Below, in pieces: positions 19,990 through 50,070 of a stretch of DNA of 64,000 nt (positions are counted from its first letter, which is position 1; the number at the start of each line of letters is the position of its first letter). The notes below the pieces were generated by a model, which was not told the origin of the DNA, ran no database searches, and saw only the letters and a list, made by a program, of their open reading frames with translations. A program made the translations under genes and the position numbers. The stretch is from Minisyncoccota bacterium. Its GTDB lineage: Bacteria > Patescibacteriota > Minisyncoccia > Minisyncoccales > CG1-02-41-26. The stretch is taken from contig JAQULB010000004.1 of the NCBI GenBank assembly GCA_028718785.1, forward strand, positions 2,525 to 66,524, read 5' to 3'.

Positions 19990-22900
19990 TTATTCCTGTT
20001 CGTTGTTGGTAAATTGGCAGATATCTTTGAAATCGCAGAACTGGCAGTGAAAACCCGGGGTGGCCTTAAAGTTGCTTTTATATATTTTTTCAATTGTTTG
20101 GATAATTTCATCTTTTAATTTTTGTTTTTCTTGCTCTGTGCCCAAAAAGCTTATTTTTTCTCCGCTTTCTAAATAATAGTAAGCCAATTCAACTGGATTT
20201 AATTTTAGGTTTTCTTCTGTTGCTATTTGATAAAGCAAAAGCTGGGTCTTATCATCCTTTTCTAATTTATCTTTCTTTTTTCCAGTTTTGTAATCGATAA
20301 GACACACGCCCCCGCCCGCATCGCTACGCGAGCAAGCACTCGCTTGCGAAGCGTTGCGGGCAGGCCCATTAACTTCATCAATGCGGTCAATTTTTCCAAT
20401 CAAGGTGTATTTACCCGCTTTTAAGCGAAAACTTACCTCTAAAGCCAGTTTATCGTTTATTTTTAAAATTTTAGGAGGATTTTTTACAAAATCATCATAA
20501 AAGTTTTTTAAAATCTCTTTGCCTAATTTTTTGTATTCCTCTTTTTGGGCTTTGCTTTCATACCACTCTCCTATCCAATTCTTTTCATAAATCCCCGCCA
20601 AATCCTCAAAACCCGCGGCAACCCGGTTGCCGTGGGTTTCAAAGGCAAAGAGGGATTCTTGGGTTTTGTCGGCTGTTTGGAAATAACTACGCAAGAAATC
20701 ATCTAATGTTTTATGCAAGGTTTTACCAAACGAGAAACTGGCCTTTCCTTTAATGGGTATTTTTAAGATGTGGGCTAATTTGTATTGATAGGGGCATTTA
20801 TTAAAAGCTGTTAATTGGGTGTATGAAAAATGGTCGGGAATAGACCATTTTTCAATATTTAACTCTATGGGTTCTTTGGCTGGCTCGTCTATTTGCTGGG
20901 CTTGTTTTCCTTTGCTTTTTGGCAAGGGTTTTTGGGCCAAGCCAAGCTCCACTAAGAAAAGCGAGGGTTTTTTGCTGGTTTTACCCCCGTAATTTGAGGC
21001 CGAGGTTAAAAATAAACCCTGCTTGGCTCTGGTCATGGCCACATAAAAAAGCCGGCGTTCTTCTTGCAAATGAATATCCCCCTCCCCGGCTTGTTCTTTA
21101 ACAAGCGGTTCTGGAATTTCAATGGCATCTTTTCTTTCAATTGAAGGAAACCGCTTATCAACCATACTAACCACGAAAACATATTTAAATTCTAAGCCCT
21201 TAGCTGAGTGAACAGTCATTATTTTGATTGTGTCAGGGCCTTGGTCAATATCAAACTCCATTTTACCTTGCTCTCCGCTTTCAATTTCCAAAGTTAATTG
21301 GGCTAAAAAATTTTTTAGCGATGGATCAATTGACGCTTCTTTAAAACCCTGTATTTTTTTGTAAAACTGACTCAAAAAATCAATTTCCAGCAATTTATCT
21401 TTTTCAACCAAATATTTTAAAAAGCCCGAGTTATTTAAAAAAGCTACAAAAATTTCCCCAACTGATTTGGTTTTTGCCATTTCAGTATGGCGGGTTATTA
21501 AAGAAAGTAAAAAGGTAATTTTATTTAAAGTTTCGTGAGTTATGCCTTTTACAACTGAAATCTTAGACAATGTTTCATAAACCGACTGAGAGCGCTTGTG
21601 GCTTTCTTGAGTGATAAGCATTATGTCTTTAATATCTATACTTAAAAATGGTAAAGACAAAACTCGATAAAGCGCTAAACTTTCGTGGTAATTATCTAAT
21701 AGTTTTAAATAAGAAATAACATCTAAAATAATTGGCTTTTGAAAAAGCCCCCGCGAGGCCAAAAATTGATATTGTAATCCAGCCCTGTCTAAAGCCAAAG
21801 CAAACGGCACAGCTGAATCATTGGCTCTTACTAAAATTGCAAAATCGCTAAGCTTGGTGTCTGGTTCTTTTTCTAAAATTAAAACAATAGTGTTAGCTGT
21901 CTCTTTGGCTTCTTCGTTAAGCGATTTAAAATGCAAATATTTAACAAAACTTGGCTGTGATTTTTGAGCTTGAAGTTTTTTGTCTATTTTGGAAATAAAC
22001 TCCAATCTATTGGGATTGTTGGCTTGGATAAATTTGTATGACAAATCCAAAACCTCTTGCCCAGACCTATAATTTTTAACTAAACAAATTTCTTTGGCTT
22101 GTGGAAAATCCCGCTTAAACTGTTTTATATTGCTAACTGATGCGCCCCTCCATTTATAGATTGAATTATGAACAACAATTCCATTAGCAAAAAAATTATG
22201 AGTTTTATCAACCTCTAAATCATAAACTGCAATATTTTTATTTTCCTCTTTAATCTCGACAATCTCATCGTAAATAATTTCTCGACCTTGCCTAACAGGT
22301 AAATAATGGCCTAAAACTAAATTTTTAGCTGGTATAACTATTGCGGGGTAACTTCTGGGTCGATCGCTATCCTTCAAAGGATGTTGCAACGCTATATTAA
22401 ATTTTGTTTCCACAATTCCTTCTGTTAAATTTTCGAGTTGCTTGGCTATTTTGCCAATTTCTTGAAAATCCACATTTTCAATTCTAAGCTTCATACCGTT
22501 TTTGGCCTTTAAAAGATTGTATTTTGCTTTTTTTAGCTTCTCTATCGTTGCTTTATCTGAAGTTTCTAAACTTAGAACATGCTTTATAGCAGGGTTAAGT
22601 AAAAATTGTTTTTCTTTTTTTCTAATAATATCTCTGCTACGATAATTTCGGTGGCACATTCTTATATTAATTTTAATTCTCACCTTATTACCCCTATTAA
22701 CGGCATCAAGGGCAAAATGATGAGCGCTTAAATCAATATTTAAATCTTGGGATAGCCGAGCAATATTTTTATCCACTGTTAAATCTCGATAAAGTTTAGA
22801 CAGTAATTCATCTTTAATAACTATATTCTTGCGAACCTGAAAACAGCTGGTTGGTATGCCATACTTTAACGACCATAATGTTTCGTGATATCGTGCTTCT

Positions 22901-24090
22901 ATTTCAGTATTAAACGCCTTAATTGCTAAAATTTTATCAGCTGAACGCTCTAATCTTATTCTAATAATTAATGCATTGGTTACTCCTATCCTCCAGCCAA
23001 TGTCTTGCCTGTGCATTAAATAAACATAGTAAAATTTTTTACTATTATGAGTTTGGGGCACGAAACAAAACATTTTATGGTTATCTGTAGTTTGAACTTC
23101 AAAACCTTTTTTTGTTTTGATAGTTATTAGCATTGCTTGCTTCTTTTTTTTCGAAACTTTAAGTACTTTTGAAACCCCAATGTGCCCCTTACCCACAGCA
23201 GTTAAAACTTCATCACCCACCTTTATGTTCTTAATTGATTTTTTACCTTGAAATGTAGAAACTAAAACATCACCAGGAAGACACTGGTCATCGTCGGCTG
23301 TAACTGTTAAGTTATTTTTTGGCTGGGCTAATAGTTTTATAAGTTCGTATTGGGCTTTGTTTGTGTCTTGAAATTCATCAAGCAAAATATATTTAAATTT
23401 TTCTCTGTATTTTTGCAAAATAGCTGGCCGTTTCTGGAACAATTGCAAACAATAGTTTATTAAATCGCCAAAATCCAAAAAATTATTTTCTAATAATAAT
23501 TGCTGGTAGGCGTGATAGGCCTGAGCCACCTCCCCCACTCTGACCTCTTCACTATCCTCTATTAACTCATCTAATGATGTTTTTAATGAATCCGCATAAT
23601 CTAAATATTCTTTTGGGTAAATCATTTGATCTTTGCATTTTGAAAAATGGTCAAGCAAGGCCCTGATAAACTTATTGGGATTACCCAATGGTTTGTAATA
23701 TTTTAAGTTAAGGTTTTCTAAATTTTGTCGCATTAAAAGCCAGGCGCCCGTTTGATCTAAAAGTTTAAAATCAGGCAGGCCAATATCCAAACCATTTTCT
23801 TTTAAAATTCGCTCAGCAAAACTATGAAAAGTGGAAACCCAAATATCGCTATAGCCAAAATCCATTTCCCTGTCCACCCGCTCTTCCATTTCTAAAGCCG
23901 CTTTTTCGGTGAAAGTTAAAGCCAAAATTTCCTCGGGCTTAGCTAACTCTTTTTCTATTAAATAAGCAATGCGATCGGTGATAACTCGAGTTTTTCCCGT
24001 GCCAGCTCCCGCCACAATTAAAAGCGGGCCATCTTGATGCATAACCGCCTGTTTTTGTTCTGGGTTTAGTTTTTGCAAATCAACTACCAT
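19990..24090 (-). CDS. UvrD/PcrA-type helicase fused to a C-terminal Cas4-like PD-(D/E)XK nuclease; interrupted by an intein
   Basis: Walker A is AGAGTGKT, with DEFQDT and then TADDDQ|intein|SIYKWRGA (motif III). The C-terminal part has GKIDRID...IDYKTG and a 4-Cys set (KCPY...HCQFCDFKDIC). Confidence 0.9.
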   Translation of the reverse strand: MVVDLQKLNPEQKQAVMHQDGPLLIVAGAGTGKTRVITDRIAYLIEKELAKPEEILALTFTEKAALEMEERVDREMDFGYSDIWVSTFHSFAERILKENGLDIGLPDFKLLDQTGAWLLMRQNLENLNLKYYKPLGNPNKFIRALLDHFSKCKDQMIYPKEYLDYADSLKTSLDELIEDSEEVRVGEVAQAYHAYQQLLLENNFLDFGDLINYCLQLFQKRPAILQKYREKFKYILLDEFQDTNKAQYELIKLLAQPKNNLTVTADDDQCLPGDVLVSTFQGKKSIKNIKVGDEVLTAVGKGHIGVSKVLKVSKKKKQAMLITIKTKKGFEVQTTDNHKMFCFVPQTHNSKKFYYVYLMHRQDIGWRIGVTNALIIRIRLERSADKILAIKAFNTEIEARYHETLWSLKYGIPTSCFQVRKNIVIKDELLSKLYRDLTVDKNIARLSQDLNIDLSAHHFALDAVNRGNKVRIKINIRMCHRNYRSRDIIRKKEKQFLLNPAIKHVLSLETSDKATIEKLKKAKYNLLKAKNGMKLRIENVDFQEIGKIAKQLENLTEGIVETKFNIALQHPLKDSDRPRSYPAIVIPAKNLVLGHYLPVRQGREIIYDEIVEIKEENKNIAVYDLEVDKTHNFFANGIVVHNSIYKWRGASVSNIKQFKRDFPQAKEICLVKNYRSGQEVLDLSYKFIQANNPNRLEFISKIDKKLQAQKSQPSFVKYLHFKSLNEEAKETANTIVLILEKEPDTKLSDFAILVRANDSAVPFALALDRAGLQYQFLASRGLFQKPIILDVISYLKLLDNYHESLALYRVLSLPFLSIDIKDIMLITQESHKRSQSVYETLSKISVVKGITHETLNKITFLLSLITRHTEMAKTKSVGEIFVAFLNNSGFLKYLVEKDKLLEIDFLSQFYKKIQGFKEASIDPSLKNFLAQLTLEIESGEQGKMEFDIDQGPDTIKIMTVHSAKGLEFKYVFVVSMVDKRFPSIERKDAIEIPEPLVKEQAGEGDIHLQEERRLFYVAMTRAKQGLFLTSASNYGGKTSKKPSLFLVELGLAQKPLPKSKGKQAQQIDEPAKEPIELNIEKWSIPDHFSYTQLTAFNKCPYQYKLAHILKIPIKGKASFSFGKTLHKTLDDFLRSYFQTADKTQESLFAFETHGNRVAAGFEDLAGIYEKNWIGEWYESKAQKEEYKKLGKEILKNFYDDFVKNPPKILKINDKLALEVSFRLKAGKYTLIGKIDRIDEVNGPARNASQASACSRSDAGGGVCLIDYKTGKKKDKLEKDDKTQLLLYQIATEENLKLNPVELAYYYLESGEKISFLGTEQEKQKLKDEIIQTIEKIYKSNFKATPGFHCQFCDFKDICQFTNNEQE
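20305..20367. repeat. GC-rich palindromic insertion, in frame inside the helicase nuclease domain
   Basis: The sequence is CCCCCGCCCGCA-TCGCTACGC-GAGCAAGCactcGCTTGC..-TGCGGGCAGGCCC. It reads NGPARNASQASACSRSDAGGG, between the GKIDRID and IDYK motifs. Confidence 0.65.
20611..20641. repeat. REP-like palindrome AAACCCG-CGGCAACCCGGTTGCCG-TGGGTTT inside the helicase ORF
   Basis: The same 17-nt core, CGGCAACCCGGTTGCCG, occurs at 35931-35947 and 36162-36178. Here it is read as HGNRVAAGF. Confidence 0.7.
22165..23283 (-). other. Intein (373 aa) in helicase motif III, with a GIY-YIG-like central domain
   Basis: The N-terminal junction is DDDQ|CLPGDVLV, block B is TTDNH, and the C-terminal junction is HNFFANGIVVHN|S. 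Both boundaries were checked at nucleotide level (TGT at 23283-23281, AAT at 22167-22165). Confidence 0.85.
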
Positions 24091-24371: not shown

Positions 24372-24454
24372 AATTTAATGCTGGTTTAAATATATCAAAC
24401 TTTAAAAATTTCGTCAAGCTTTTTGCGCAAAATAAAAAACTTTTGTAAAAGAAA

Positions 24455-24778: not shown

Positions 24779-25390
24779 TTAAGCAATCATTTCTTTTATT
24801 TTCATTCTAACAATTTTTTCGCTTCTTTCTTGCTCGTCAAGCTTTGAGGTGATAAATTTTATTTTTCTTTTTGTTTCAGGAATAATAACATACTCTAAAG
24901 CATTAACGCGCCTTCTGGTTTTTTCAATTTCATAAGATAACAACCGACAAGAATGTTCGTTGCCAGCCAAATCTATCATTAACTCTAAAGCGTCCCAAAA
25001 ACTATTTAAACTTTCCCCCATTCCCAAAGGCGAAGAAAAATCAGAGTAACATTTAACATCTCCTCCAATAAAGCGCTGAAATTTTGGTATCCAAACGCTC
25101 ATTATATTTTGAGTTTTAACATCTATGCTTATTTTTGAGGAAGGCAAAGAAAACATTTCTTCCACCTCCCCAGAAAACATATTTGATGTTGATAAAACAA
25201 ATTTTTTTGAAGCAAAAGAAAGCTTTTCCTCTAAAAGGTTTCTTTGGGACTTTGTTTGCCTGATAATTTCCATAAACTTTTTCATTAAGCCGTCCCGTTT
25301 TTCTTTTAAAAGTTTATAGCCCCTTTGAGCGGTTTTTGCCTGGCGCTTTAATTTTAAAAGCTCCATTCTTGTTGCTTTGATATTTTCCAT
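24779..25390 (-). CDS. atpD: A/V-type ATP synthase subunit D
   Basis: MENIKATRMELLKLKRQAKTAQRGYKLLKEKRD is the canonical subunit D N-terminus. It is the last gene of the operon. Confidence 0.9.
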   Translation of the reverse strand: MENIKATRMELLKLKRQAKTAQRGYKLLKEKRDGLMKKFMEIIRQTKSQRNLLEEKLSFASKKFVLSTSNMFSGEVEEMFSLPSSKISIDVKTQNIMSVWIPKFQRFIGGDVKCYSDFSSPLGMGESLNSFWDALELMIDLAGNEHSCRLLSYEIEKTRRRVNALEYVIIPETKRKIKFITSKLDEQERSEKIVRMKIKEMIA

Positions 25391-25527
25391 GTTAGAAATT
25401 TTTAATTGAACGGCGAATTTATGAGTCGTGAAATTTAAAAGTTCTTACACCCCGTTAAATAATTTTAAATTAGTAAATTTAAAATTAAAATTTGTACTCA
25501 AATTTTATTTAACAGGGTAAATTCGTA

Positions 25528-26940
25528 CTAAACTCGCTCTTCGCCCTTCGGGCTTGAACTCATTAAGTACTTATTTATGTGTTCCTCTTTCAATCTCTTC
25601 ATTTCTTCTTTTGGCAATATGCCAATTAGTTCCCAGCCCAAATCTAATGTTTGCTGGATTGTTCTGTCTTCTGTGTAGTTTTGATTAACAAACTTTTGTT
25701 CAAAATCATCAGCAAACTTTAAGTATTTTTTATCCACATCAGTTAAAGCTGACTCCCCTAAAATTAAAGCTAACTCTCTTACTTCTCTGCCTCGAGCGTA
25801 AAAAGCAAACAATTGGTTTAAAACTCCAGAATGGTCTTCTCTGGTTTTTTTATCGCCAATGCCCTTGTCTTTTAACCGAGATAAAGACGGTAAAACATCA
25901 ATGGGAGGATAAATATTCTTTTTGTGCAAGTCCCGAGAAAGCAAAATTTGCCCCTCGGTGATATACCCAGATAAATCAGGAATTGGGTGGGTGATATCAT
26001 CTTCTGGCATTGTTAAAATGGGAATTTGGGTGATAGAACCCTTTTTATTTTTTATTCTGCCCGCTCTTTCATAAATAGTGGCCAAGTCAGTATATAAGTA
26101 TCCCGGATATCCCCTTCTTCCCGGCACTTCTTTTCGGGCTGCTGACACTTCTCTTAAGGCCTCGCAGTAATTTGTCATATCAGTTAAAACCACCAAAACC
26201 TGCATATCTTTTTCAAAAGCCAAAAACTCAGCGGCTGTTAAAGCGATCCTGGGCAGTGTAATTCTTTCCACCACTGGATCGCTAGCTAGGTTAATAAACA
26301 CCACCGCTTTTTCTAATGCCCCTGTTTTTTTAAACTCATCAATAAAAAATTGGGCTTCTTCAAAAGTAATTCCCATGGCTCCAAAAACCACAGAAAATTT
26401 TTCAACTTCCCCTTTTTCGTTTTTTGTTAAAACCTTGGCTTGCCTGGCAATTTGAGAAGCCACCATAGCATGAGGAAGTCCAGCCGCTGAAAATATTGGC
26501 AGTTTTTGTCCTCTTACTAAAGTATTTAAACCATCAATAGTGGAAATGCCTGTTTGAATAAAATCATTGGGATATTCTCTTGAATAGGGGTTGATTGGAG
26601 AGCCGTTAACATCTAAATATTTTTCAGCTATAATTTCTGGCCCGCCATCTTTTGGTTTGCCGGCGCCATCAAAAATTCGCCCAACCATATCGCTTGACAC
26701 CCCAAGCTTCATTGTTTTAGCTAAAAATTTGGCTTTTGAGCCCTTTAAATTTAATCCTCTAATATCTTCAAACACCTGAATAATAGCTGTGGTTTCGTTT
26801 GCTTCTAAAACCCGGCCTCTTTTTATTTGACCATCCTGCATTTCAATTTCCACCATTTCCTCATACTTTATATTTTCCACTCCACCAACCACCACCAATG
26901 GCCCAGCTGCCTCTGTAATTGTTTTGTATGTCTTTAACAT
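25528..26940 (-). CDS. atpB: A/V-type ATP synthase subunit B
   Basis: 470 aa, the non-catalytic B-type sequence ([29 protein letters not shown]). Confidence 0.95.
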
Positions 26941-26949
26941 ATATTTTAT

Positions 26950-28704
26950 TTAAACAATTTGTTCTATTTCTTTATTAAGCAAAACAAATTGCTCTATTTC
27001 TTCTTCTTTAATAAGCTTCATTCTTGAGACCTTTTCCTTTAAACTATTTGTTAAAATATCTTTGGCTAATTTTCCCTGACTGATAGCTTGTTCTCCTTTA
27101 ATAAAAATATCAACAATTGTTTTCACCATTAAGTATTGCTTTTTTAAAGAAGTAAAAGAATCCACATCAGTAAAAGCGTTTTGATGTAAAAAGTCCTCCC
27201 TGATAATGCGAGCAATTTCAAGTAAAAACTGGTCTTTTTGAGACAAGGCCTCAATGCCAACCAACCGAACAATTTCTTGAAGCTCGGCTTCTTTTTGCAA
27301 AATAGCCATTGCTTTTTTTCTAAATTCAGTAAAGTTTTCTCCGCCTTGCTTGTCAAAAAATTCTTTTAAATTGTCTTCGTATAAAGAATAGCTGTTGAGC
27401 CAATTAATAGCTGGAAAATGTCGTTTATAAGCTAACGAGGCATCTAAGGCCCAAAAGACCTTTGTAACCCTTAAAGTATTTTGGGTTACTGGCTCTGATA
27501 AATCCCCACCCGGAGGAGAAACCGCTCCCACAACTGTTAAAAACCCCTCTCTTTTGTCTTGCCCCAAACATTGCGTGTAGCCAGCTCTTTCATAAAAGGC
27601 CGCTGTTCGAGAGCCAAGATATGCTGGGTAGCCCTCGTCCCCGGGCATTTCTTCCAATCTTCCGGAAATTTCTCTTAACGCCTCTGCCCACCTTGAAGTG
27701 GAATCAGCTAATAAAACCACCGAGTATCCCATATCGCGAAAATATTCAGCAATGGTTATGCCTGTGTAAACCGATGCCTCTCGAGCAGCCACAGGCATAT
27801 TTGAAGTATTGGCCACCAAAACTGTTCTTTCCATTAAGGGTCGGCCGGTTTTGGGGTCGTTTAATTCAGGAAACTCCATTAACAAATCAGTCATTTCGTT
27901 TCCCCTTTCTCCACAGCCCACAAAAATAATTACATCAGCATCAGACCATTTTGCCAATTGGTGCTGAACAACTGTTTTCCCGCTGCCAAACGGCCCTGGC
28001 ACACAGCCCGCCCCGCCTTTGGCAATTGGAAAAAACATATCAATAACCCTTTGTCCTGTTATCAACCCCAAAGATGGGGTTAATTTTTTGGCAATTGGTC
28101 TGGCGTTTCTAATGGGCCATTTATGACTCAAGCATACCTCTATTTTTTTGCCATTTTCATCTTTTATTTCAGCAATTACTTCAGAAACAGTATAGTCCCC
28201 TTTTGGAGCAATTGAAGTTATGGTTCCTTTGTTAAAAACAGGAGGAGCCATAATTTTATGAGTTAAAAGTTCGGTTTCTTTTACCTCGCCCAAAATATCT
28301 CCGGCTTCAATCTCGTCGCCTTGTTTTTTAAGGGGAGTAAGGGTCCATTTTTTGTTTGCGTCTAACGCCAAACACTCAATTCCCCGAGCAATAAACTCGC
28401 CTGATTTTTTGGCTAAATCTTTTAGAGGTCTTTGAATGCCATCGTAAATATTGGAAATTAACCCAGGACCCAATTCAACAGTTAAGGGATTTCCTGTTAA
28501 ATAAACTGGCTCTCCCGGGCCAATGCCTGATGTTTCTTCATATACCTGAATATAAACATCGTTGTTTTTTATCCTAATTACTTCTCCAATGATTTTTTCA
28601 TTGCCCACTTTTACCACCTCATACATTTGAGCTTCAGAGAGTCCGTTGGCCACCACTAAGGGGCCAGCCACCTTAATAATTTTTCCTGTTTTTTCTTCTG
28701 CCAT
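26950..28704 (-). CDS. atpA: A/V-type ATP synthase catalytic subunit A
   Basis: 584 aa with Walker A GPFGSGKTV and GERGNEM. It includes the non-homologous insert typical of A subunits. Confidence 0.95.
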   Translation of the reverse strand: MAEEKTGKIIKVAGPLVVANGLSEAQMYEVVKVGNEKIIGEVIRIKNNDVYIQVYEETSGIGPGEPVYLTGNPLTVELGPGLISNIYDGIQRPLKDLAKKSGEFIARGIECLALDANKKWTLTPLKKQGDEIEAGDILGEVKETELLTHKIMAPPVFNKGTITSIAPKGDYTVSEVIAEIKDENGKKIEVCLSHKWPIRNARPIAKKLTPSLGLITGQRVIDMFFPIAKGGAGCVPGPFGSGKTVVQHQLAKWSDADVIIFVGCGERGNEMTDLLMEFPELNDPKTGRPLMERTVLVANTSNMPVAAREASVYTGITIAEYFRDMGYSVVLLADSTSRWAEALREISGRLEEMPGDEGYPAYLGSRTAAFYERAGYTQCLGQDKREGFLTVVGAVSPPGGDLSEPVTQNTLRVTKVFWALDASLAYKRHFPAINWLNSYSLYEDNLKEFFDKQGGENFTEFRKKAMAILQKEAELQEIVRLVGIEALSQKDQFLLEIARIIREDFLHQNAFTDVDSFTSLKKQYLMVKTIVDIFIKGEQAISQGKLAKDILTNSLKEKVSRMKLIKEEEIEQFVLLNKEIEQIV

Positions 28705-28716
28705 ATATTTAATAAA

Positions 28717-29028
28717 TTAATTTATAAAGCTTTCGCTTCCCAACGCCCTTTCTAATATTTTTTTTAGCCCCTCTTTGGCTTTTCCAGAGTCCTTATTAAT
28801 CCCTGGAATAACCAAACAAGCTGGCAAAGTTTCTTGAAAAAGATTGCTAATTTCTTTGTCAAAATTTTGGGCAATATCTTCGTTGATTAATAAAATAGCT
28901 AAGTCCTTTTCTTTAATCGCTTTTATTTGCAAAAGCAATTCTTCTTTATTGGAAACACCAAAAGTTTCAACGCCCAAAGCGCCAAAAGCCAAAACTGATT
29001 TGTTATCTCCTAATATTCCAATTTTCAT
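28717..29028 (-). CDS. atpF: A/V-type ATP synthase subunit F
   Basis: 103 aa starting MKIGILGD...GF.ALG, in the operon position between C and A. Confidence 0.8.
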   Translation of the reverse strand: MKIGILGDNKSVLAFGALGVETFGVSNKEELLLQIKAIKEKDLAILLINEDIAQNFDKEISNLFQETLPACLVIPGINKDSGKAKEGLKKILERALGSESFIN

Positions 29029-29036
29029 AAGTAAAT

Positions 29037-30041
29037 TTAAGCAATAGGCAATAGCGCTCCCTCAATATCTTGCACAGACAGCCCATTCTCTTTAGCAAAT
29101 AAAATCAATCTTATGTTAGCGTAACTGTTCATTTTCTTTTGAAAAAAAGCCAAAACTTTTTCAATACCACTCCCCCTTTCTTTTTCTTTTTGAAAAACTT
29201 TTTTAGCAATATACCCATCGAGTTTTCTTTCAAGTAAAATATCAACAGCTCCCCCCTCCGTTCCTTCAAGTAAAAAACCAAGTTCTAATGTTTCTAAAAA
29301 CCTTTTTAAATTAGCGCTTGATTCCTCTTCCTTGCCAATCGACAGTCCTTTAATTTGAGAAATGGTCAAATTTCCTCCCTCTAAAAAATCTTGATTGTTA
29401 TTGCCTAAAAGATTTCTTAAATTAGCTAAATCCATTTCCAAACGAGTCATCTCCCCTAAAGATTTTTCTCTTTTTGCTAAAATTGTTTTTATCTTAAAGT
29501 AAGCTGTGTCAACCGATTTTTCAATAATTTGAGATCCAATATCTTGACCATCTTTTTTATATCTGCTTATAGTTTTTACCGCCTCCAAAATTAATTGTTC
29601 AACATAAATGTTAGAAAGTTTTTCTGTGACGCCATCGCGATTATTTCCTTCAAGAAGAATTTTTAAAAAAGATTCCTCTTTAGCGTATGGTTGAAGAGAA
29701 CACTCAAAGGGCCTAAATTTTTTTATTTCTTGCTTAAAAAAATATCTTTTAAGCATATCTTTTATATTTAAAGCGTCAAACTTTAAAAACAAAAAGCTTG
29801 CCAATAATTCATTATCATCTAAAACTTTAGTTAGTTTAGATTTTAAAGCAACAAGGTCTTGTAAAATAACATCCTCAATATTTTTTTGAGAATCTGTGAC
29901 AATAATCTCGCTAAAATCTGTGTCAAACAAAACCATAAAAGCGCTTGCTTTGTCTGGGGACTTAAGCATTCTTTCTTGGTCAAGGTTGCTTAAAACCTTT
30001 TTTTCCCAAACATTTATAACCCCTGTGGCAAATTCATACAT
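29037..30041 (-). CDS. atpC: A/V-type ATP synthase subunit C (d-type)
   Basis: 334 aa, helical, in the operon position between E and F. Confidence 0.75.
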   Translation of the reverse strand: MYEFATGVINVWEKKVLSNLDQERMLKSPDKASAFMVLFDTDFSEIIVTDSQKNIEDVILQDLVALKSKLTKVLDDNELLASFLFLKFDALNIKDMLKRYFFKQEIKKFRPFECSLQPYAKEESFLKILLEGNNRDGVTEKLSNIYVEQLILEAVKTISRYKKDGQDIGSQIIEKSVDTAYFKIKTILAKREKSLGEMTRLEMDLANLRNLLGNNNQDFLEGGNLTISQIKGLSIGKEEESSANLKRFLETLELGFLLEGTEGGAVDILLERKLDGYIAKKVFQKEKERGSGIEKVLAFFQKKMNSYANIRLILFAKENGLSVQDIEGALLPIA

Positions 30042-30046
30042 ATTCT

Positions 30047-30604
30047 TTACGCAAAAAGCATTTTAATTAATTCTGGGTTGGCTGTTTCTTGTAATTGAAA
30101 AATAAGCTGAGAAATTCTCAAATCTATTTCAATGTCATGAGACACAAACATAAAGCCCTCTTCTTTCAAGGCGTTTTCCACTTTTACTTCCTTATCCACA
30201 ATTCCTTCCAACGCTTTGGCTGTTCTTTCACCTGCCTTAATATGCCCCTTCTTGTCTTTGGGCAAAAACAAAGCCATATGCTTTATCAATTTTTTAAACT
30301 CTGCGTCATTAAGAGAAGAAACTTTTTCTTGGGCTTTGCGATAAATATCTTTAATAAGCTTATTTTTTTCTTCCTGCATCTTAAAGTTTAACTCTGTTTG
30401 CAGATTTTTTTCAAATTCCTCAATTTCTTTAGCTGCTTTCCTTAAAGCCATTTCTTTTTGTTCCTCCTGCTTTTTACCAACAGCCAAATTGTATTCTTTT
30501 TCCAAAACCAAAACATCTTCTTTGTTCTTTTTAAGAATTTCTTGAATTTGGCTTTCGGCCTTTTCTTCAATTGATTTTAAAATATCATTAACCATATTAA
30601 ACAC
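30047..30604 (-). CDS. atpE: A/V-type ATP synthase subunit E
   Basis: 185 aa with a long N-terminal charged coiled-coil and a globular C-terminus. It sits after K in the operon. Confidence 0.8.
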   Translation of the reverse strand: MFNMVNDILKSIEEKAESQIQEILKKNKEDVLVLEKEYNLAVGKKQEEQKEMALRKAAKEIEEFEKNLQTELNFKMQEEKNKLIKDIYRKAQEKVSSLNDAEFKKLIKHMALFLPKDKKGHIKAGERTAKALEGIVDKEVKVENALKEEGFMFVSHDIEIDLRISQLIFQLQETANPELIKMLFA

Positions 30605-31067: not shown

Positions 31068-31156
31068 ACGATAAATAATTTTTAATTTTTAATTTTTAAT
31101 TTTTAAAACGCTAAAAAATTGAAAACTAAAATAATTAAAAATTTAATAAATTAACT

Positions 31157-36159: not shown

Positions 36160-36180
36160 TACGGCAACCCGGTTGCCGTA
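36160..36180. repeat. REP-like palindrome TACGGCAACCCGGTTGCCGTA, about 12 nt upstream of the transposase start
   Basis: 21-bp perfect palindrome in the transposase/rarA intergenic spacer. Confidence 0.7.
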
Positions 36181-41080: not shown

Positions 41081-41350
41081 TTACACTGGTCTTACTGGTG
41101 CATTTTTAATTAATATTAATTTTTTGGTGCGAGAGAGGCGTTTTAGTTGGGCTTCGCGGGCACGGGCTTGATTTAAAGTTGGAAATTCTTCTGAGTATTT
41201 TAAAACAACTGGCCGACGGATTTTGGTATAGTGAGCTCCCATTTTTGACCCATTGTGTTGTTTTAGCCGTTTTTCAAGATTGTTGGTACAGCCGACATAG
41301 AGGGAGTTGTCGGAGCATTGGAGGATATAGACAAAATAAGAGTATTCCAT
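41081..41350 (-). CDS. GIY-YIG nuclease family protein (YhbQ/SLX1-like)
   Basis: YFVYILQCSDNSLYVGCTNNLEKRLKQHN...AREAQLK. Confidence 0.85.
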   Translation of the reverse strand: MEYSYFVYILQCSDNSLYVGCTNNLEKRLKQHNGSKMGAHYTKIRRPVVLKYSEEFPTLNQARAREAQLKRLSRTKKLILIKNAPVRPV

Positions 41351-41498
41351 AACGAAGTCCCTCGCTTTTGCTCGGGATTAAAATTTCAAGGAGTTTACCT
41401 GTTTGAATGTCTATCCACTTCTTGGTGCGTTCTGCTGAACGCATCCGCGAAGCGAATTTGAGCTTTTTAAAAGATTACTTTTAAAAACTCGAATTCGG

Positions 41499-42810: not shown

Positions 42811-42821
42811 TTTAAATTTAT

Positions 42822-43579: not shown

Positions 43580-44995
43580 ATGCTCCAAATTTATAATACT
43601 TTATCAAGCAAAATTGAACCCTTATCCCCTATTAAAAAAGGTAAAATTAACCTGTTTGTTTGCGGACCAACAGTTTATGACTATTCTCACATTGGCCATG
43701 CCAGAACTTATGTGGCTTTTGATATGTTTGTTAATTACCTAAAACATCTGGGGTTTGATGTTTTTTATTTACAAAACATAACTGACATTGACGATAAAAT
43801 AATAAAAAGAGCTAAAGAAAAAAATGTTAGCCCAAAAGAATTAGCGTATGAATTTGAAAAAGAATATATGGCTGATATGAAAACCTTGCAAGTAAAATCC
43901 ATTACAAAGTACGCCAGAGCCACAGAGCATATAAAACAAATTATCTCTCAAGTGGAACGGCTTTTAGTCAAGGGGTTTGCTTATCAAACAAGTGATGGCA
44001 TTTATTATGATGTTTCAAAATTTATTGGCTATGGCAAGCTTTCTGGCCGAACTGTTGAGGGGGCAGAAGATGGCACCTCAAGAATTGACGAGGGCGTTGC
44101 AAAAAAAAATAAAGCGGATTTTTGCTTGTGGAAGCTTGCTCTGAGTGAAGCCAAAGAATTTGAGCCCTCATGGCCAAGCCCTTGGGGAGCTGGCAGGCCG
44201 GGCTGGCACATTGAAGACACTGCCATTACTGAAAAATACTTTGGGGCCCAATACGACATTCACGGAGGCGCAAGAGATCTTATATTCCCCCACCACGAAG
44301 CAGAAATAAGCCAAATGGAGGCAATCTCTGGAAAATCGCCTTTAGTTAAATACTGGATACATACTGGATTTTTAACCATTGATGGTCAAAAAATGAGCAA
44401 GTCGCTTGGCAATTTCACAACTATAAGGGATTTCTTAAAACAAAACACCCCCCAAACTTTGCGAATGTTTATATTCTCCAGCCATTATCGCTCCCCTATT
44501 GATTTAAAAGATACCTCAATTGCGGAAGCCAAAGCCAATGTTGAAAAACTGCAGGACTTAATAACTAAACTGCAAGAAGTTAAACTCCTTGCAAAAGAAC
44601 CAAGCAAGGAGTTTAATTCCTTGCAAGAAAAATTTTGGGATGAATTAGAAAATGATTTTAACACTCCCAAAGCCAAAGCAATGTTGTTTGAGATAGCTAA
44701 TTTGGCTAATGAAAAAATTTCCAAAAACGAATTAACCCAGGAAGAGGCAGAAGAAATTTTAAAATTTTTAAAGAAAATAAATAAAATATTTTTATTTTTA
44801 GATTTTAAAAAGAAAAAAGAAGCTGAAATCCCAGAAGAAATAAAAAAATTAGCCAAGCAAAGAGAAAAATTCCGCCAAGCCAAAGAATGGCAAAAAGCTG
44901 ACGAGATGAGGAATTTAACTGCTTCAAAAGGCTGGTCAATCTACGACACAGACAATGGTTATGAATTGAAACCAAAAGATCCAACAATAGATTGA
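43580..44995 (+). CDS. cysS: Cysteine--tRNA ligase
   Basis: HIGHARTY (HIGH), KMSKSLGN (KMSKS) and WPSPWG are present. The start was moved to MLQIYNTLS. Confidence 0.92.
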   Translation: MLQIYNTLSSKIEPLSPIKKGKINLFVCGPTVYDYSHIGHARTYVAFDMFVNYLKHLGFDVFYLQNITDIDDKIIKRAKEKNVSPKELAYEFEKEYMADMKTLQVKSITKYARATEHIKQIISQVERLLVKGFAYQTSDGIYYDVSKFIGYGKLSGRTVEGAEDGTSRIDEGVAKKNKADFCLWKLALSEAKEFEPSWPSPWGAGRPGWHIEDTAITEKYFGAQYDIHGGARDLIFPHHEAEISQMEAISGKSPLVKYWIHTGFLTIDGQKMSKSLGNFTTIRDFLKQNTPQTLRMFIFSSHYRSPIDLKDTSIAEAKANVEKLQDLITKLQEVKLLAKEPSKEFNSLQEKFWDELENDFNTPKAKAMLFEIANLANEKISKNELTQEEAEEILKFLKKINKIFLFLDFKKKKEAEIPEEIKKLAKQREKFRQAKEWQKADEMRNLTASKGWSIYDTDNGYELKPKDPTID

Positions 44996-46290: not shown

Positions 46291-46429
46291 CCCCTTATTT
46301 TTTAGATTAAGTCATTAAATTTTTAAACAGCTTTGTTAAAATCTTGGCACAATAAAAATAAAAAATCAACTTCTTTGTTTTGTTTGACACAAAAGGAACA
46401 AAAGATTAAAATGGCTTCAATAAACAGCT

Positions 46430-49345
46430 ATGCCTCAAAACCAAAATATTGATAAATCCTTCAACAGAACTCAAGATAAACTGCCTCCTCAAAACATACC
46501 AGCGGAAAAATCGCTTTTGGGCTGTTTGATGATTGACCAAGACGCTATTTATAAAGTAGCGGATTTTTTGCAAATAAAGGACTTTTACAAACCAACACAC
46601 CAAATTATTTTTGAGTCCATTATTGAGCTTTTTACCAAAAGAGAACCCGTTGATTTGTTAAGCGTTTCCTCAAAACTCTCAGAATACCAAAAGCTTGAAG
46701 AAACCGGCGGAGCCAGCTACTTAACCGATCTTATCAACACCGTTCCCACAGCCAGCAATGTTTTACACTATGCCAAAATAATTCAAGACAAACGAGTTTT
46801 AAGAGATTTAATTTCTGCTGGTTATGATATTAGCAATTTAGCGCTTCAAGAAGCCGAATCCATTGATATTTTGTTAGACAAAGCAGAAAAAAGAATTTTT
46901 TCCATTGCCCAAAAATCGCTTTCTCAGTCATTCACTCATGTAAAAGATACTTTAGAAGACACTTGGAAAAGAATTGAAGAACTATCAAAACAAAAAGGCA
47001 GCTTGCGAGGCATACCCACTGGATTTCGCGATTTAGACAATATGTTAGCTGGTTTACAGCGCTCTGATTTGGTTATTTTAGCTGCAAGGCCAAGTTTGGG
47101 AAAATGCGTGAGCAAAGACACGGAAATTGTTATGTCAAATCCGGGTGGCGTTTGCACAATAGAAGAGCTTGTTAATAACCAAAAAAGAGAGGTTTTGGGA
47201 TTAGATAGCAATCTAAAAGTTAAACCTCAGTTAGTAAGTGATTTTATCAACAATGGCGTCCAGCCAGTTTTTCGGGTTGAAACTGCGTCTGGTAGAGAAA
47301 TAGAAACCACCATTACTCACCCCTTTTTAACTATTAATGGCTGGACGCCATTAGAAAATATTCGTATCGGCGTAAAAGTAGCTGTCCCCAGAATTATTCC
47401 AGTATTTGGGTGTCAAACTATGTCTGATTGGAAAATTAAATGTCTATCTTATTTTATTGCCGAAGGTGGACTAACTAATAGAAGTCCAAGGTTCACCAGC
47501 GCAAATCCAAAAATTCTGCAGGATTTTGCAGAAAGCGTTAAAATGTTTCCAAATATTAAAATCTCTATAAATAAATCCTCTACTAATAAAAATGAAAAGA
47601 ATATAACCTATCAAGTTGCAAGGGCCAATAAAACGCCTGTTTTGGCTAAAAAAGTATTTGGAGAAAAAATAAAAAAATTAGCAAGAAAATCTAATTTAAC
47701 TCAAAAAGAGCTGGCGAAAAAAACAAGTTTATGCTATCAAAGTATTTCTTATTTTTTGAATGGACATCGTTTGCCGTCAAAAACCCATTTTGCGGTTATT
47801 TTAAACCAGCTTAAAACAACTCAAAACGAAAGAGAAAACTTGACCAACGAATATCAAACACTCTTAAATGAAAATTCTGTCACTAAATGGCTGGAAAGTT
47901 TAGGGTTAATGGGTAAGCTTGCCACTGAAAAATTTATTCCTCGCGAAGTGTTTCACTTAAAGAAAAAAGATTTGTCTTTATTTTTCAATCATCTTTTTGC
48001 TTGCGATGGAAGTTTTTGGCAGAGCAAAAAAGACCTAAAGTACCACCTTTCTTACGCATCAAGCTCAAAAAAAATGATTAGGCAAATTCAACATTTGCTC
48101 TTACGTTTTGGAATAATGGGCACTGTGCGAGAAAAAAGAATCAAAATTAATAACAAAATAAAAATAGCTTACGAATTAGAGGCCCATAATGCTCAAAACC
48201 TTTTAAAATTTATTGATGAGATTGGAATCTATGGAAAAGAAATCAAGCTTCAAAAGGCAAAAAACGAAATCATTAAAACAAAGATCGGTTGGACTCAAGA
48301 CACGCTACCGATTGAAGTATGGAATAAAATAAAAAAGCTTAAAGGAAATAAAAGCTGGGCATCTATTTATACGGCTATGGGTTTGCCACATACACACAAT
48401 ATCCACGCCTTTAAACGCTCTCCCCGCAGAGAAACAATTGAAAGGTTAGCAAAAGCTTTAAACTCTCAGGAATTAAAAGACATTGCCCAAAGCGATATTT
48501 ACTGGGATAGAATAGTTGGTATAAAATATTTGGGTAAAAAACAAGTTTACGATTTAACAGTGCCAAAAATCCACAATTTTATAGCCAATGATTTCTTTGT
48601 TCATAATTCGGCTTTGGCTGTTGATATTGCTAAAAATGTGGCTTGTAAATATAAAATGCCAGTTGGCATATTTAGCTTGGAAATGAGCAAAGACCAAATT
48701 GTTGACCGTTTAATCTCCGCTCAAGCTGATGTTGATTTATGGCGTTTGCGAACTGGAAAACTATCCGACCAAGGCCCAAACAATGATTTTGAAAGAATCC
48801 AAAAAGCCATGGCCGAATTAGCTGACGCCCCTCTCTATATTGACGATGTTTCAAGCAGTAATGTTATTCAAATGCGAGCTATGGCCAGGCGATTAGCAAT
48901 GGACAAAGGCTTGGGGCTTTTAATCATTGACTATTTGCAGTTAATGGAGGGTAGAGGCAACACTGATAATGTTGTTCAGCAAGTTAGCGAAAACTCAAGA
49001 GCTTTAAAATCAATCGCTAAAGAATTAAACATACCAGTTTTGGTTTTAAGCCAGCTTTCCAGAGCTGTGGAGCATAGAATGCCACCCGTGCCTCGTCTTT
49101 CGGACTTGCGTGATTCGGGCGCGGTCGAGCAGGACGCCGATGTGGTTATGTTTATTTACAGGGAGGATCGCTATAAGCCCAACACAGAAAGAAAAAATGT
49201 GGCTGAAATTATCATTGCCAAGCACCGAAACGGGCCAGTTGGCAAAGTTGAACTATATTTTGATGAAACCCGTGTTACATTCCGGGATATGGAAAAAGGC
49301 GCCTACCAAGGAGCTGACACTGAAGAGGAAGAAAGCATTATTTAA
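46430..49345 (+). CDS. dnaB: Replicative DNA helicase DnaB, interrupted by an intein in the P-loop
   Basis: The N-terminal domain has PQNIPAEKSLLGCL. The P-loop junction is AARPSLGK|intein|SALAVDIAKN. SLEMS, IDYLQL, LSQLSR and DLRDSGAVEQDADVV follow. Confidence 0.93.
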   Translation: MPQNQNIDKSFNRTQDKLPPQNIPAEKSLLGCLMIDQDAIYKVADFLQIKDFYKPTHQIIFESIIELFTKREPVDLLSVSSKLSEYQKLEETGGASYLTDLINTVPTASNVLHYAKIIQDKRVLRDLISAGYDISNLALQEAESIDILLDKAEKRIFSIAQKSLSQSFTHVKDTLEDTWKRIEELSKQKGSLRGIPTGFRDLDNMLAGLQRSDLVILAARPSLGKCVSKDTEIVMSNPGGVCTIEELVNNQKREVLGLDSNLKVKPQLVSDFINNGVQPVFRVETASGREIETTITHPFLTINGWTPLENIRIGVKVAVPRIIPVFGCQTMSDWKIKCLSYFIAEGGLTNRSPRFTSANPKILQDFAESVKMFPNIKISINKSSTNKNEKNITYQVARANKTPVLAKKVFGEKIKKLARKSNLTQKELAKKTSLCYQSISYFLNGHRLPSKTHFAVILNQLKTTQNERENLTNEYQTLLNENSVTKWLESLGLMGKLATEKFIPREVFHLKKKDLSLFFNHLFACDGSFWQSKKDLKYHLSYASSSKKMIRQIQHLLLRFGIMGTVREKRIKINNKIKIAYELEAHNAQNLLKFIDEIGIYGKEIKLQKAKNEIIKTKIGWTQDTLPIEVWNKIKKLKGNKSWASIYTAMGLPHTHNIHAFKRSPRRETIERLAKALNSQELKDIAQSDIYWDRIVGIKYLGKKQVYDLTVPKIHNFIANDFFVHNSALAVDIAKNVACKYKMPVGIFSLEMSKDQIVDRLISAQADVDLWRLRTGKLSDQGPNNDFERIQKAMAELADAPLYIDDVSSSNVIQMRAMARRLAMDKGLGLLIIDYLQLMEGRGNTDNVVQQVSENSRALKSIAKELNIPVLVLSQLSRAVEHRMPPVPRLSDLRDSGAVEQDADVVMFIYREDRYKPNTERKNVAEIIIAKHRNGPVGKVELYFDETRVTFRDMEKGAYQGADTEEEESII
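47105..48607 (+). other. Intein (501 aa) with a LAGLIDADG endonuclease and an embedded XRE-type HTH
   Basis: The junctions are GK|CVSKDTEIV and NFIANDFFVHN|S. The LAGLIDADG motifs are LSYFIAEGG and LFACDGSF. The HTH is LTQKELAKKTSLCYQSISYFLNGHRLPS. Both boundaries were checked at nucleotide level. Confidence 0.88.
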
Positions 49346-49416
49346 AATTTTAAATCCTAATTACTAATTTCTAATAAAATATTTGAAAATTTGGCATTTT
49401 ATTTGATATTAGAAAT

Positions 49417-50070
49417 TTGTTATTAGTAATTATCGTGTTGTCTCCTTCAATTGAAAATCTAATAAAAATTTTCGCCAAATTTCCCACCATTGGGCCCAAA
49501 ACAGCGGCTCGTTTTGTTTTTTACTTACTTGACTCCCCTGCTTTAATAAGCGATGAATTGATAAAATCAATCCAAAATTTAAAAACCAACACAAAGGTCT
49601 GTCCTTTGTGTTTTAGGGTATTTGAACCCCTCGCTACGCTCGGGGCAGGCCCCTCCAACGAAAAAAATATTTGTGAAATTTGCGCTAACCCATCTCGGGA
49701 TAAATCTCTTGTTTGCGTTGTGGAAAAAGAAATTGATTTAGAAGCCATTGAAAAAACCGCCACCTACAAGGGCCTTTATTTTATTTTGGGAGGCGTGTTG
49801 CCAATTTTAAAAAAAGAAACTGTTGAGCAAACTCTTACAACAAATGTAGAAAAATTACGCGACCGCGTAAAAATTACACATGAAGTTAAAGAAATTATCT
49901 TGGCTATAAACCCCACCCTTGAAGGCCAAAATACAATTTTATGGCTGAAAAGAAAACTTGAAGGGTGTAATATAAAAATTAGTTGTTTGGCTCAAGGAAT
50001 CCCCTTGGGCGGTGAAATAGAATACGCTGACGAACAAACCATTGAGTCAGCAATACAAAATAGGAGGTAA
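49417..50070 (+). CDS. recR: Recombination protein RecR
   Basis: FPTIGPKTAARF (HhH), a C4 zinc finger (CPLC...CEIC) and a Toprim domain are present. The exact start is uncertain; a GTG at 49435 is possible. Confidence 0.9.
   Translation: MLLVIIVLSPSIENLIKIFAKFPTIGPKTAARFVFYLLDSPALISDELIKSIQNLKTNTKVCPLCFRVFEPLATLGAGPSNEKNICEICANPSRDKSLVCVVEKEIDLEAIEKTATYKGLYFILGGVLPILKKETVEQTLTTNVEKLRDRVKITHEVKEIILAINPTLEGQNTILWLKRKLEGCNIKISCLAQGIPLGGEIEYADEQTIESAIQNRR
49626..49655. repeat. GC-rich palindromic mini-insertion inside the RecR zinc finger
   Basis: CCCCTCGCTACGCTCGGGGCAGGCCCC is read as PLATLGAGPS between the two Cys pairs. It shares TCGCTACGC and GGGCAGGCCC with 20305-20367. Confidence 0.6.

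Follow-up and report, generated by a model that had tools for sequence, protein, structure and literature searches.

Repetitive extragenic palindromes (REPs) are short (20 to 40 nt), GC-rich stem-loop repeats that occur as singletons, dimers, or arrays. They are usually extragenic and sometimes lie wholly inside open reading frames (ORFs), in frame, and they favor DNA replication and repair genes (UvrD/Rep helicases, recBCD, and dnaE) and tRNA synthetases (Di Nocera et al. 2013, PMC3733652). The same survey reports REPs within uvrA/B/D, recBCD, and dnaE and within genes for tRNA synthetases and pseudouridine synthases, and it notes that two Xanthomonas species have different REPs at one recB site; it also equates the Rickettsia palindromic elements (RPEs) RPE-4 and RPE-6 with CGTC-tagged REPs and includes Neisseria dRS3 in the GTAG/CGTC-tagged super-families. 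RPE-1, as that survey cites it from Ogata et al. (2000), is ~100 to 150 bp long and occurs in Rickettsia only. Here, we describe two short GC-rich inserts that lie in frame inside a helicase-nuclease gene and inside recR. Both are found in a 64-kb stretch of DNA (the window) from contig JAQULB010000004.1, part of a metagenome-assembled genome (MAG) of an ultra-small bacterium of the Candidate Phyla Radiation (CPR)/Patescibacteria, reported here as Pacebacteria. We consider it probable (about 0.72) that both result from the lineage-specific insertion, in frame, of a short REP-like repeat of high GC content.

The repeat family behind these inserts resembles the surveyed REPs in its size, GC-rich and putatively stem-loop form, and occurrence as singletons, dimers, or arrays, in its sometimes in-frame position within ORFs, and in the kinds of genes that it enters. 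Like RPEs, the inserts are putatively selfish palindromic DNA, in frame in functional, often essential genes of a small AT-rich genome. They are patchy among relatives and are probably tolerated as extra surface peptide; empty sites in orthologues document the insertion, and low predicted local distance difference test (pLDDT) values in structural models point to the surface. By analogy, the family appears to behave like an intragenic REP or RPE. The original prediction, made from the window's sequence, had drawn the comparison with RPEs, and it gains support from the empty orthologue sites, the dispersed family, and the low-confidence loops described below. Unlike RPE-1, the elements are 20 to 60 nt long, the host is a member of the Pacebacteria, and a gene resembling the REP-associated tyrosine transposases (RAYTs) is present; by description, the two are set apart. 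The GC clusters of yeast mitochondria and the Nematomorpha mitochondrial coding palindromes of up to 284 bp (PMC6649704) are likewise GC rich or palindromic, lie in coding genes of AT-rich genomes, and can be translated, but those are organellar and lineage restricted and have no HUH transposase. Miniature inverted-repeat transposable elements, which span 70 to 300 bp, were rejected as a match: the inserts are 30 and 60 nt long, have no terminal inverted repeats, and show no target-site duplication at recR. Intragenic REPs are already known; what is new here is the CPR host, a family that crosses phyla, and a repeat copy inside a transposase ORF. In the literature, with incomplete coverage, we found no REP or RAYT in CPR, no mention of this 24-nt family, and no REP copy inside a RAYT ORF, which is absence of evidence only.

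The two host genes and their inserts are as follows (positions are those of the window).

19990-24090, minus strand: host gene 1, a fusion of a UvrD/PcrA-type helicase and a PD-(D/E)XK (Cas4/AddA-like) nuclease, 1366 aa, intein bearing
20308-20367, gene on the minus strand, motif order TCGCTACGC...GGGCAGGCCC on the plus strand: helicase insert, a GC-rich imperfect palindrome, DNA fold z = -4.2
49417-50070, plus strand: host gene 2, recR, ORF as listed from 49417
49626-49655, plus strand: recR insert, CCCCTCGCTACGCTCGGGGCAGGCCCCTC, ~1.25 units of the repeat family, in the C4 zinc finger loop

Both inserts are real and far beyond chance. The 9-mer TCGCTACGC occurs exactly twice in the 64 kb (20321-20329 and 49631-49639), as does the 10-mer GGGCAGGCCC (20358-20367 and 49643-49652). 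The two motifs are confined to the helicase and recR inserts, and their order and strand are identical at both. We found two matches to the pattern TCGCTACGC-N{3,30}-GGGCAGGCCC in the window, against 0.00 in 100 dinucleotide-preserving shuffles. The GC content is 0.73 in the helicase insert and 0.77 in the recR insert, compared with 0.35 and 0.38 in the respective host genes and 35.6% in the window. Both inserts keep the reading frame: that of the helicase encodes GPARNASQASACSRSDAGGG between the nuclease motifs IDRID and DYKTG of the PD-(D/E)XK domain, and that of recR encodes PLATLGAGPS between C62xxC65 and C86xxC89. The original prediction was correct about the shared end motifs, the GC excess, and the frame; it had started the helicase stretch at 20305, and the actual start is ~20308-20309. 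Orthologue alignment suggests that the true start of recR is the GTG at 49435.

We compared the two sites with their orthologues, a check that the original prediction had proposed. Among 31 RecR relatives, the closest (P0002-4, 6, 8, and 9; 79 to 86% identity) have zero residues at the insert site, and not the homologous residues from AT-rich DNA that would be expected of an ancestral segment. Other RecR relatives have related peptides at exactly the same position (PLDSLRSLGAGP, PFDSAQG, PFDSTQGK, and PFDSAQDK). At the DNA level, empty recR sites read TTTGAA/AAC or TTTGAA/AAT (the slash marks the insertion point), while the filled site of the window reads TTTGAA-CCCCTCGCTACGCTCGGGGCAGGCCCCTCC-AAC. 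Relatives L004 and L005, which are two independent assemblies, have TTTGAA-CCCCTCGACTCGCT(T/C)CGCTCGCTCGGGGCAGGCCC, and the related filler in these two is CCCCTCGACTCGCTTCGCTCGCTCGGGGCAGGCCC. Relative L006 has TTTGAA-CCCTTCGACTCCGCTCAGGG, at the same codon as the window insert. In a neighbor-joining tree of RecR with bootstrap, built with the insert masked, carriers and non-carriers are mixed: P0011 groups with P0014 and P0015 (bootstrap, 100%), and P0026 groups with P0013 and P0031 (97%). P0033, which bears a different hairpin, groups with P0048 (100%). Thus, the patchy distribution of carriers within well-supported clades points to several gains or losses at one codon.

The helicase site gave a similar picture. 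Of the 26 helicase orthologues aligned, 23 lack an insert between IDRID and DYKTG, and the site is empty in the DNA of L022. The closest helicase relative, L020 (82% identity), has a different GC-rich segment at this site, and L021 has a third distinct one, which contains the palindrome CCTGCCTGCCGGTAGGCAGG.

Since the source and almost all related records are MAGs, the insertions might be assembly or binning artifacts. We regard this as extremely improbable. Diverged orthologous inserts are present in independent assemblies that come from separate projects (NCBI GCA_043797465, Logan SRR22315508, and GCA_964948515), and the frame is preserved in every case. Moreover, reads and assembly k-mers are both longer than the inserts; therefore, one read must span both junctions. 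A related inverted pair also occurs in a complete Sphingopyxis indica plasmid.

Mapping onto predicted structures, also proposed beforehand, placed both inserts in low-confidence predicted loops with confident flanks. In the RecR model (mean pLDDT, 72.6), the only internal low-confidence stretch is residues 69 to 82, FEPLATLGAGPSNE, with pLDDT below 50. The nuclease-domain model (mean pLDDT, 78.9; predicted template modeling score, 0.73) falls below 50 at residues 214 to 228, which are the insert (flanks, >90). It does so again at residues 119 to 127, THGNRVAAG, a stretch derived from a second repeat that is described below (flanking blocks, >90). Low pLDDT over the inserts with confident flanks therefore predicts flexible loops that leave the fold intact, and the models suggest that the inserts are exposed at the surface. 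Translation of the inserts predicts junction-spanning peptides such as FEPLATLGAGPSNEK.

Such segments might instead be removed or skipped and so be missing from the mature protein, whether as a very small intron, as something akin to an intein, or through translational bypass of the yeast mitochondrial byp type. Bypassing is known from Magnusiomyces mitochondria, where it affects GC-rich insertions in AT-rich organelle genes, and inteins are tolerated in the same helicase and in DnaB. Nevertheless, we judge removal or bypass very unlikely. The inserts bear no signature of an intein or an intron, and nothing came near threshold when both regions were scanned with Rfam. The frame is kept and stops are avoided, which would be needless if the segments were skipped, and orthologous inserts differ by in-frame substitutions and by indels of multiples of three. 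In addition, 30 to 60 nt is far below the size of known self-splicing elements.

We asked where else in the window and in related DNA such sequences occur. The additional copies and inserts found in the window are as follows.

41358-41377, plus strand: intergenic family core TCCCTCG-CTTTT-GCTCGGGA (hairpin TCCCTCGCTTTTGCTCGGGA), without the CAGGCCC tail
44134-44157, minus strand: probable decayed family copy in cysS, GCTTGCTCTGAGTGAAGCCAAAGA
50568-50594, minus strand: insert in rplU (ribosomal protein L21), 27 nt, GC rich, in frame, encoding ATSAKASAS

The core CCCTCG-N3-6-GCTCGGG has two matches in the window, the recR insert and 41358-41377 (spacer N5), against 0 in 200 shuffles. The intergenic copy lies upstream of a small GIY-YIG ORF (41081-41350, minus strand) and ends 8 nt from its start. 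In ~78 kb of syntenic DNA from relatives, a relaxed core is found in L001 (within cysS), L002 (in the spacer between dnaB and recR), and L006 (within recR). The L001 counterpart of the window cysS copy is GCTTGCCCTGAGCGAAGCCGAAGG, the reverse complement of CCTTCGGCTTCGCTCAGGGCAAGC, and the two copies differ by four G/C-to-A/T transitions. In L002 and L006 the copy is absent, and cysS is 4 codons shorter. This length difference is 12 nt and not 24 nt; thus, it is not a clean insertion. The cysS copy possibly reflects decay after insertion. In all, the family has three copies in the 64 kb and one more that is possibly decayed, and three of these are intragenic. Strand relative to replication gave no usable signal: the three copies are on the plus strand, and the cysS and L002 copies are opposite.

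An indel scan of 14 orthologous genes of the window against relatives found more in-frame GC-rich inserts of other sequence types, and ordinary AT-rich indels too. The window, L004, and L005 share the rplU insert, which L001, L002, and L006 lack; it has no hairpin and belongs to a different sequence family. The sortase gene of L006 has at 14804-14834 a perfect GC hairpin with a 14-bp stem, GCCCCGTTAGAGGC-AAG-GCCTCTAACGGGGC, that is in frame (SPVRGLASNGA) and absent from the window and L001. Variable GC hairpins also occur in the cysS linker.

The family copies define a 24-nt unit with the consensus CCCCTCGAC-NNN-GCTCGGGG-CAGG, in which the middle trinucleotide is variable and both sides are conserved. 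The complementary strand reads CCTG, CCCCGAGC, the loop, and (G)TCGAGGGG, which gives a 4-nt tag (CCTG), an 8-nt arm, a variable loop of 4 to 5 nt, and a second 8-nt arm. The arms would pair CCCC with GGGG, enclosing tandem G.A mismatches. Both ends of the unit are retained in the helicase insert, which is a longer palindromic derivative of it. Among units that were not chosen by the search pattern, the arm ends are CCC/GGG in 33 and CCT/AGG in 14, with two mismatched combinations found once each. Such covariation (47 paired versus 2 unpaired) is the pattern that a paired stem would be expected to give. The loop region of the window copies is GC-GTA-GC, which we take to be a GNA-type DNA mini-hairpin, a structure that is presumably underrated by standard energy tables. 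This may explain the poor fold score of the recR insert, given below.

We then scanned one genome per species for the pattern CCCCTCG-N{0,14}-GCTCGGGGCAGGCCC, an arbitrary sample of at least 120 loci; the results that follow hold among the matches listed. The spacer is exactly 5 nt in 95 of 124 matches and 4 nt in 19 of 124. Thus, with its fixed 5-nt spacing, the pattern does not reflect chance matches. By record title, the MAGs that carry the unit belong to no fewer than 12 phyla: Acidobacteriota, Gemmatimonadota, Chloroflexota, Actinomycetota, Planctomycetota, Verrucomicrobiota, Lentisphaerota, Myxococcota/"Deltaproteobacteria," Methylomirabilota, WOR-3, Bdellovibrionota, Bacteroidota, Pseudomonadota, Saccharibacteria, and other Patescibacteria. 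Head-to-tail arrays with a 24-nt period are common. The family is not a Pacebacteria-specific palindrome, given a 24-nt unit found, by title, in at least 12 phyla. Where loci are AT rich, real genes contain the unit, in both orientations and several frames. It is in frame in a DnaJ C-terminal domain, in an NAD-dependent epimerase of a Saccharibacterium, in a MutL linker, and in a sulfatase and a HAD hydrolase, in each of these last two directly after the signal peptide. A BLAST search of a three-unit array against 72,556 plasmids gave one match, the complete plasmid pMC4 of Sphingopyxis indica, where a related inverted pair lies at the 5' end of a heme-binding protein gene. A scan of viral contigs with a 16-mer gave mostly chance matches in high-GC contigs. 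Rfam searches of the whole window at the gathering threshold and of both insert regions at permissive settings found no family over the inserts, with chance-level matches only. We know of no convincing match between the unit and a tRNA 3' half, 5S rRNA, tmRNA, RNase P RNA, or signal recognition particle RNA.

Two of the loci bear on how such repeats are arranged. In a Methylomirabilis MAG (L026, ~5084-5110), the arms GTCATTGCGAGG...CTCCGCAATC, similar to a CGTC-type REP, enclose family units. In a Prevotellaceae MAG (L070, ~4743-4769), the unit is embedded among other REP-like repeats. Judging by these two arrangements, repeat families seem to nest in one another.

The anatomy of the unit allows a closer comparison with described REPs. 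Its geometry (tag of 4, arm of 8, loop of 4 to 5, and arm of 8) is that of CGTC REPs. Unlike REPs, however, it has the tag CCTG, not CGTC, TGTC, CCTC, or GTAG; the GTAG in the window copies is loop sequence only and is not conserved in the family. Unlike those of CGTC REPs, its arms start with CC and not AT and contain tandem G.A and C.T mismatches, and there is no CCA tail. Its units form spacer-free head-to-tail arrays with a period of 24, and they are near identical across many phyla, whereas REPs are usually limited to a species or genus. The family also differs from GTAG REPs in not flanking a RAYT gene, either in the window or among 80 loci of RAYT relatives. Thus, since the unit fails on the tag, the AT-start arms, the CCA tail, and the RAYT link, it falls outside the described REP families. 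Patescibacteria, the host group here, lie outside the PMC3733652 survey.

The window contains a RAYT-like gene and a second palindrome, CGGCAACCCGGTTGCCG, as follows (no strand is assigned to the palindromes).

35416-36147, minus strand: RAYT-like HUH/Y1 (IS200-like) transposase, 243 aa (HUH motif within MPNHLHLL, tyrosine motif within VYIHTNP)
36162-36178: upstream copy of CGGCAACCCGGTTGCCG, 14 nt upstream of the RAYT-like start codon
35931-35947: internal copy of CGGCAACCCGGTTGCCG, in frame (YGNRVAV), in a variable loop before the HUH motif, fold z = -5.8
20611-20637 (core, 20616-20632): helicase copy of CGGCAACCCGGTTGCCG within the palindrome ACCCGCGGCAACCCGGTTGCCGTGGGT, in frame (THGNRVAAG), fold z = -5.9
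35420-35438: GC palindrome CCAGAGGCCGGGCCTCTGG in the last codons (SRGPASG) of the RAYT-like ORF, fold z = -3.9

The protein matches Pfam PF01797 (Y1_Tnp) with an E value of 1.1e-11 and 45 bits against a cut-off of 23. Its sole NCBIfam match, NF047646 (REP-associated tyrosine transposase), scores 49.4 bits, below the cut-off of 80. Across 13 relatives, the residues MPNH-L-H and Y-I-H-T-N-P show little or no variation, and by the Pfam match and these motifs the protein has a Y1 HUH fold with its HUH and catalytic tyrosine motifs. The family is large, with more than 2,699 clusters. Among the best 120 of these, the named ones are CPR (Pacebacteria, Nealsonbacteria, Staskawiczbacteria, and "Patescibacteria group") or "bacterium," and the only labels are "transposase," "putative transposase," and "hypothetical protein."

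We found three exact copies of the perfect palindrome CGGCAACCCGGTTGCCG in the window, against 0.01 expected. The helicase copy lies ~250 nt from the helicase insert and 15 kb from the RAYT-like gene; at its position, L020 has a different, AT-richer hairpin, AAAAAGGAAGGACAGGCCTTCCTTTTT. Locus L224, from the same assembly as L006, encodes a 91% identical protein that is syntenic, between mgsA and a P-type ATPase gene, and it has the CGGCAACCCGGTTGCCG palindrome upstream of, inside, and downstream of the RAYT-like gene. Because the gene is syntenic between relatives, it appears to be vertically inherited. In 80 metagenome loci of RAYT relatives, 60 of them with both flanks available, GC-rich perfect palindromes flank the gene, and often one lies inside it. 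These palindromes are identical within a locus and different between loci (e.g., GCGGAGACCCGGTCTCCGC, CACGGGTTGAACCCGTG, and ATGCCGGGGTCCGACCCCGGCAT), and CCAGAGGCCGGGCCTCTGG resembles those of related loci, such as CAGAGGTCAGACCTCTG. A palindrome is common to at least two positions in 16 of the 60 loci and to all three in 10 of the 60. At the internal position of the RAYT ORF, relatives have their own lineage-specific palindrome.

With flanking cognate palindromes that are also dispersed, the gene and CGGCAACCCGGTTGCCG have the makeup of a REPtron. They share with the REPIN/REP-RAYT systems a single-copy HUH/Y1 gene, flanking and dispersed palindromes, co-variation of gene and repeat, and synteny. 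They differ in that the window protein is longer (243 aa) and below the NCBIfam RAYT cut-off, in that the CGGCAACCCGGTTGCCG-type palindromes are perfect, 17 to 23 nt long, with a center of 1 to 3 nt and no GTAG tag, and in that the transposase ORF contains, at a fixed position, an in-frame copy of the palindrome. The single-copy RAYT-like gene and CGGCAACCCGGTTGCCG therefore look, from these sequence features, like a co-resident REPtron-like system that is separate from the 24-nt family. A tie between the 24-nt family and RAYTs was considered and found no support: no RAYT was detected in 849 kb around the cross-phylum copies, and 0 of the 80 RAYT-relative loci are flanked by the family.

The inserts might instead have arisen locally, with palindromes and short tandem units made de novo through fold-back or template-switch synthesis and slippage at permissive, fast-evolving loops, and with a common mutational bias accounting for the shared motifs. 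Some same-site hairpins are indeed made of ordinary AT-rich coding sequence (e.g., AAAAAGGAAGG-ACAG-GCCTTCCTTTTT in L020), plain AT-rich indels occur in the same loops, recR shows no target-site duplication, and the 24-nt tandem arrays point to slippage. We nonetheless consider a local origin unlikely. It does not account for 19 specified bases common to two unlinked inserts against 0 in shuffles, for an identical 27-mer with fixed spacing that recurs in many phyla, or for the identity of the helicase copy of CGGCAACCCGGTTGCCG with those at the RAYT-like gene, at a distance of 15 kb. The inserts are 73 to 81% GC in genes of 35 to 38% GC; therefore, they were not copied from their flanks. For recR, in addition, one arm is not derivable from the empty-site sequence.

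The recurrence of hairpins at one position could also mean that they are kept for a function, as pause sites in transcription or translation, RNase targets, binding sites of the RAYT-like protein, or useful protein loops. Sister lineages have same-position hairpins of differing sequence in the helicase and in the RAYT ORF, which is like conservation of structure without that of sequence, and the helicase hairpins both coincide with a domain or motif boundary. Vertical inheritance and a host-like character are ascribed to RAYT systems, and the gene here is syntenic. Against this, some near-identical orthologues carry an insert and others do not, the fold of the recR copy is not significant, and the cysS copy seems to be decaying. 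The family peptides are unrelated (PLATLGAGP, GPAPSEVEG, and RGLPRAESRG) and are read from both orientations and several frames; thus, a role at the protein level is unlikely. On balance, we find retention for function about as improbable as a local origin.

We return to the preferred reading, insertion of a REP-like repeat, against which several observations weigh. The recR junctions, whether filled or empty, show no target-site duplication. The self-complementarity that had been claimed for both inserts holds for the helicase insert (z = -4.2) and fails for that of recR, which is no better than shuffles (z = +0.9; 165 of 200 shuffles fold equally well or better) and in which it is limited to CCCC/GGGG and GC/GC. 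Likewise, the third, intergenic hairpin of the original prediction matches the family core, but it lies at 41358-41377 rather than 41365-41384, and its fold is not significant, being no better than that of shuffles. Copy density is low, with 3 to 4 copies in the 64-kb window and 4 distinct copies in 384 kb of other CPR DNA. The recR and rplU inserts are common to the window, L004, and L005 and may stem from one inherited or co-transferred event. Translation of the inserts is an inference. The arm-end covariation could come from two linked subfamilies instead of pairing. In addition to the arbitrary sampling of the scan, nearly all cross-phylum records are MAGs; therefore, their taxon labels may carry binning errors. 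Finally, the RAYT-like gene of the window is flanked by a different palindrome and not by the 24-nt family, and single-sequence phmmer, which has limited reach, found no RAYT homologue in 849 kb around the cross-phylum copies.

Our proposed mechanism is that the 24-nt units are non-autonomous selfish repeats that would spread as single-stranded hairpins. For the CGGCAACCCGGTTGCCG palindrome of the RAYT-like gene, HUH-type cut-and-join is, by analogy, the likely route. In a gene-dense, AT-rich CPR genome with little intergenic space, only stop-free copies that keep the frame (multiples of three) and fall in permissive surface loops would persist. Translation of the surviving copies would yield short, disordered loops in which Pro, Gly, Ala, Ser, and Arg are abundant, and these copies would later erode through AT-biased mutation. 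At permissive or preferred sites, repeats might be replaced or homogenized over time. Such site-wise replacement would, conjecturally, leave sister lineages with different hairpins at the same codon, as in the helicase, RecR, and the transposase ORF. That the palindromes of a REPtron locus change together suggests in-situ templated replacement, that is, concerted evolution.

The unit may be near identical from CPR with 35% GC to Acidobacteriota and Actinomycetota with 70% GC. Tentatively, and with the odds somewhat against it, we propose jointly that the 24-nt unit is a hairpin repeat spread across at least 12 phyla and that CPR REPtrons replace their palindromes in situ by templating. If the unit is truly common to a dozen phyla, it would be an unusually conserved mobile or host-dependent DNA motif, a tiny element that either passes often between phyla or depends on some host activity that is universal.

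If the inserts are what we propose, streamlined, gene-dense CPR genomes are not immune to repeat invasion, and the repeats are pushed into coding sequence. RecR (inside its zinc finger), a repair nuclease (between its catalytic motifs), and ribosomal protein L21 would then all contain selfish repeats. In CPR proteins, some of the variation in length, and some of the odd loops rich in Pro, Gly, Ala, and Arg, would be repeat derived and not adaptive, which matters for annotation, alignments, phylogenomics, and structure prediction. The RAYT-like family would offer a tractable system for the movement and homogenization of REP-type repeats.

Other features of the window and its relatives are recorded here. 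A GC-rich island, TCCGTGCCGACCTGCGCTACGCCGGAGGCTCCAGC, lies at 54606-54640 in a 440-nt stretch without an ORF of at least 100 aa; it has no Rfam match at the gathering threshold, and it includes GCGCTACGC, which has one mismatch to the 9-mer TCGCTACGC. There are two small YhbQ-type GIY-YIG ORFs, at 41081-41350 (89 aa) and 58320-58541 (73 aa), both on the minus strand. GC sequence rich in TCGCT/TCGCTC lies ~10 to 30 nt before each, an arrangement that is kept in L001. A tie between the 24-nt family and GIY-YIG genes was rejected, as a hidden Markov model search gave one weak match in 849 kb around 120 cross-phylum copies.

The intein of the helicase spans 22162-23283 (aa 270 to 643) at the DDDQ/SIY motif (CLPGDV...VVHNS), where NCBIfam models for intein N- and C-terminal splicing regions match. 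The product of dnaB (46430-49345) is 971 aa long owing to an intein with LAGLIDADG and helix-turn-helix domains. The DnaB of L004 has an intein too, and those of L001, L002, and L006 (448 to 456 aa) have no intein domains.

Beside the P-type ATPase and RAYT-like genes, the window has a V/A-type ATPase operon (24779-33079; subunits I, c, AC39, F, A, B, and D). Locus L224 has, with the same neighbors, an F-type ATP synthase operon (8099-14023; a, c, b, delta, alpha, gamma, and beta). The shared neighborhood suggests that one rotary ATPase was replaced in place by the other. A LOOT RNA is present at 5676-5790 on the plus strand (Rfam RF03000; 77 bits against a gathering score of 46), and GC skew changes sign there. 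A DUF5906/primase-like gene and a CHC2 zinc-finger gene lie nearby (2683-4821), and this region may mark an integrated element. The window also encodes a proteasome-subunit-like protein at 11049-11750 on the minus strand (PF00227; E = 2.7e-13), in a CPR genome.

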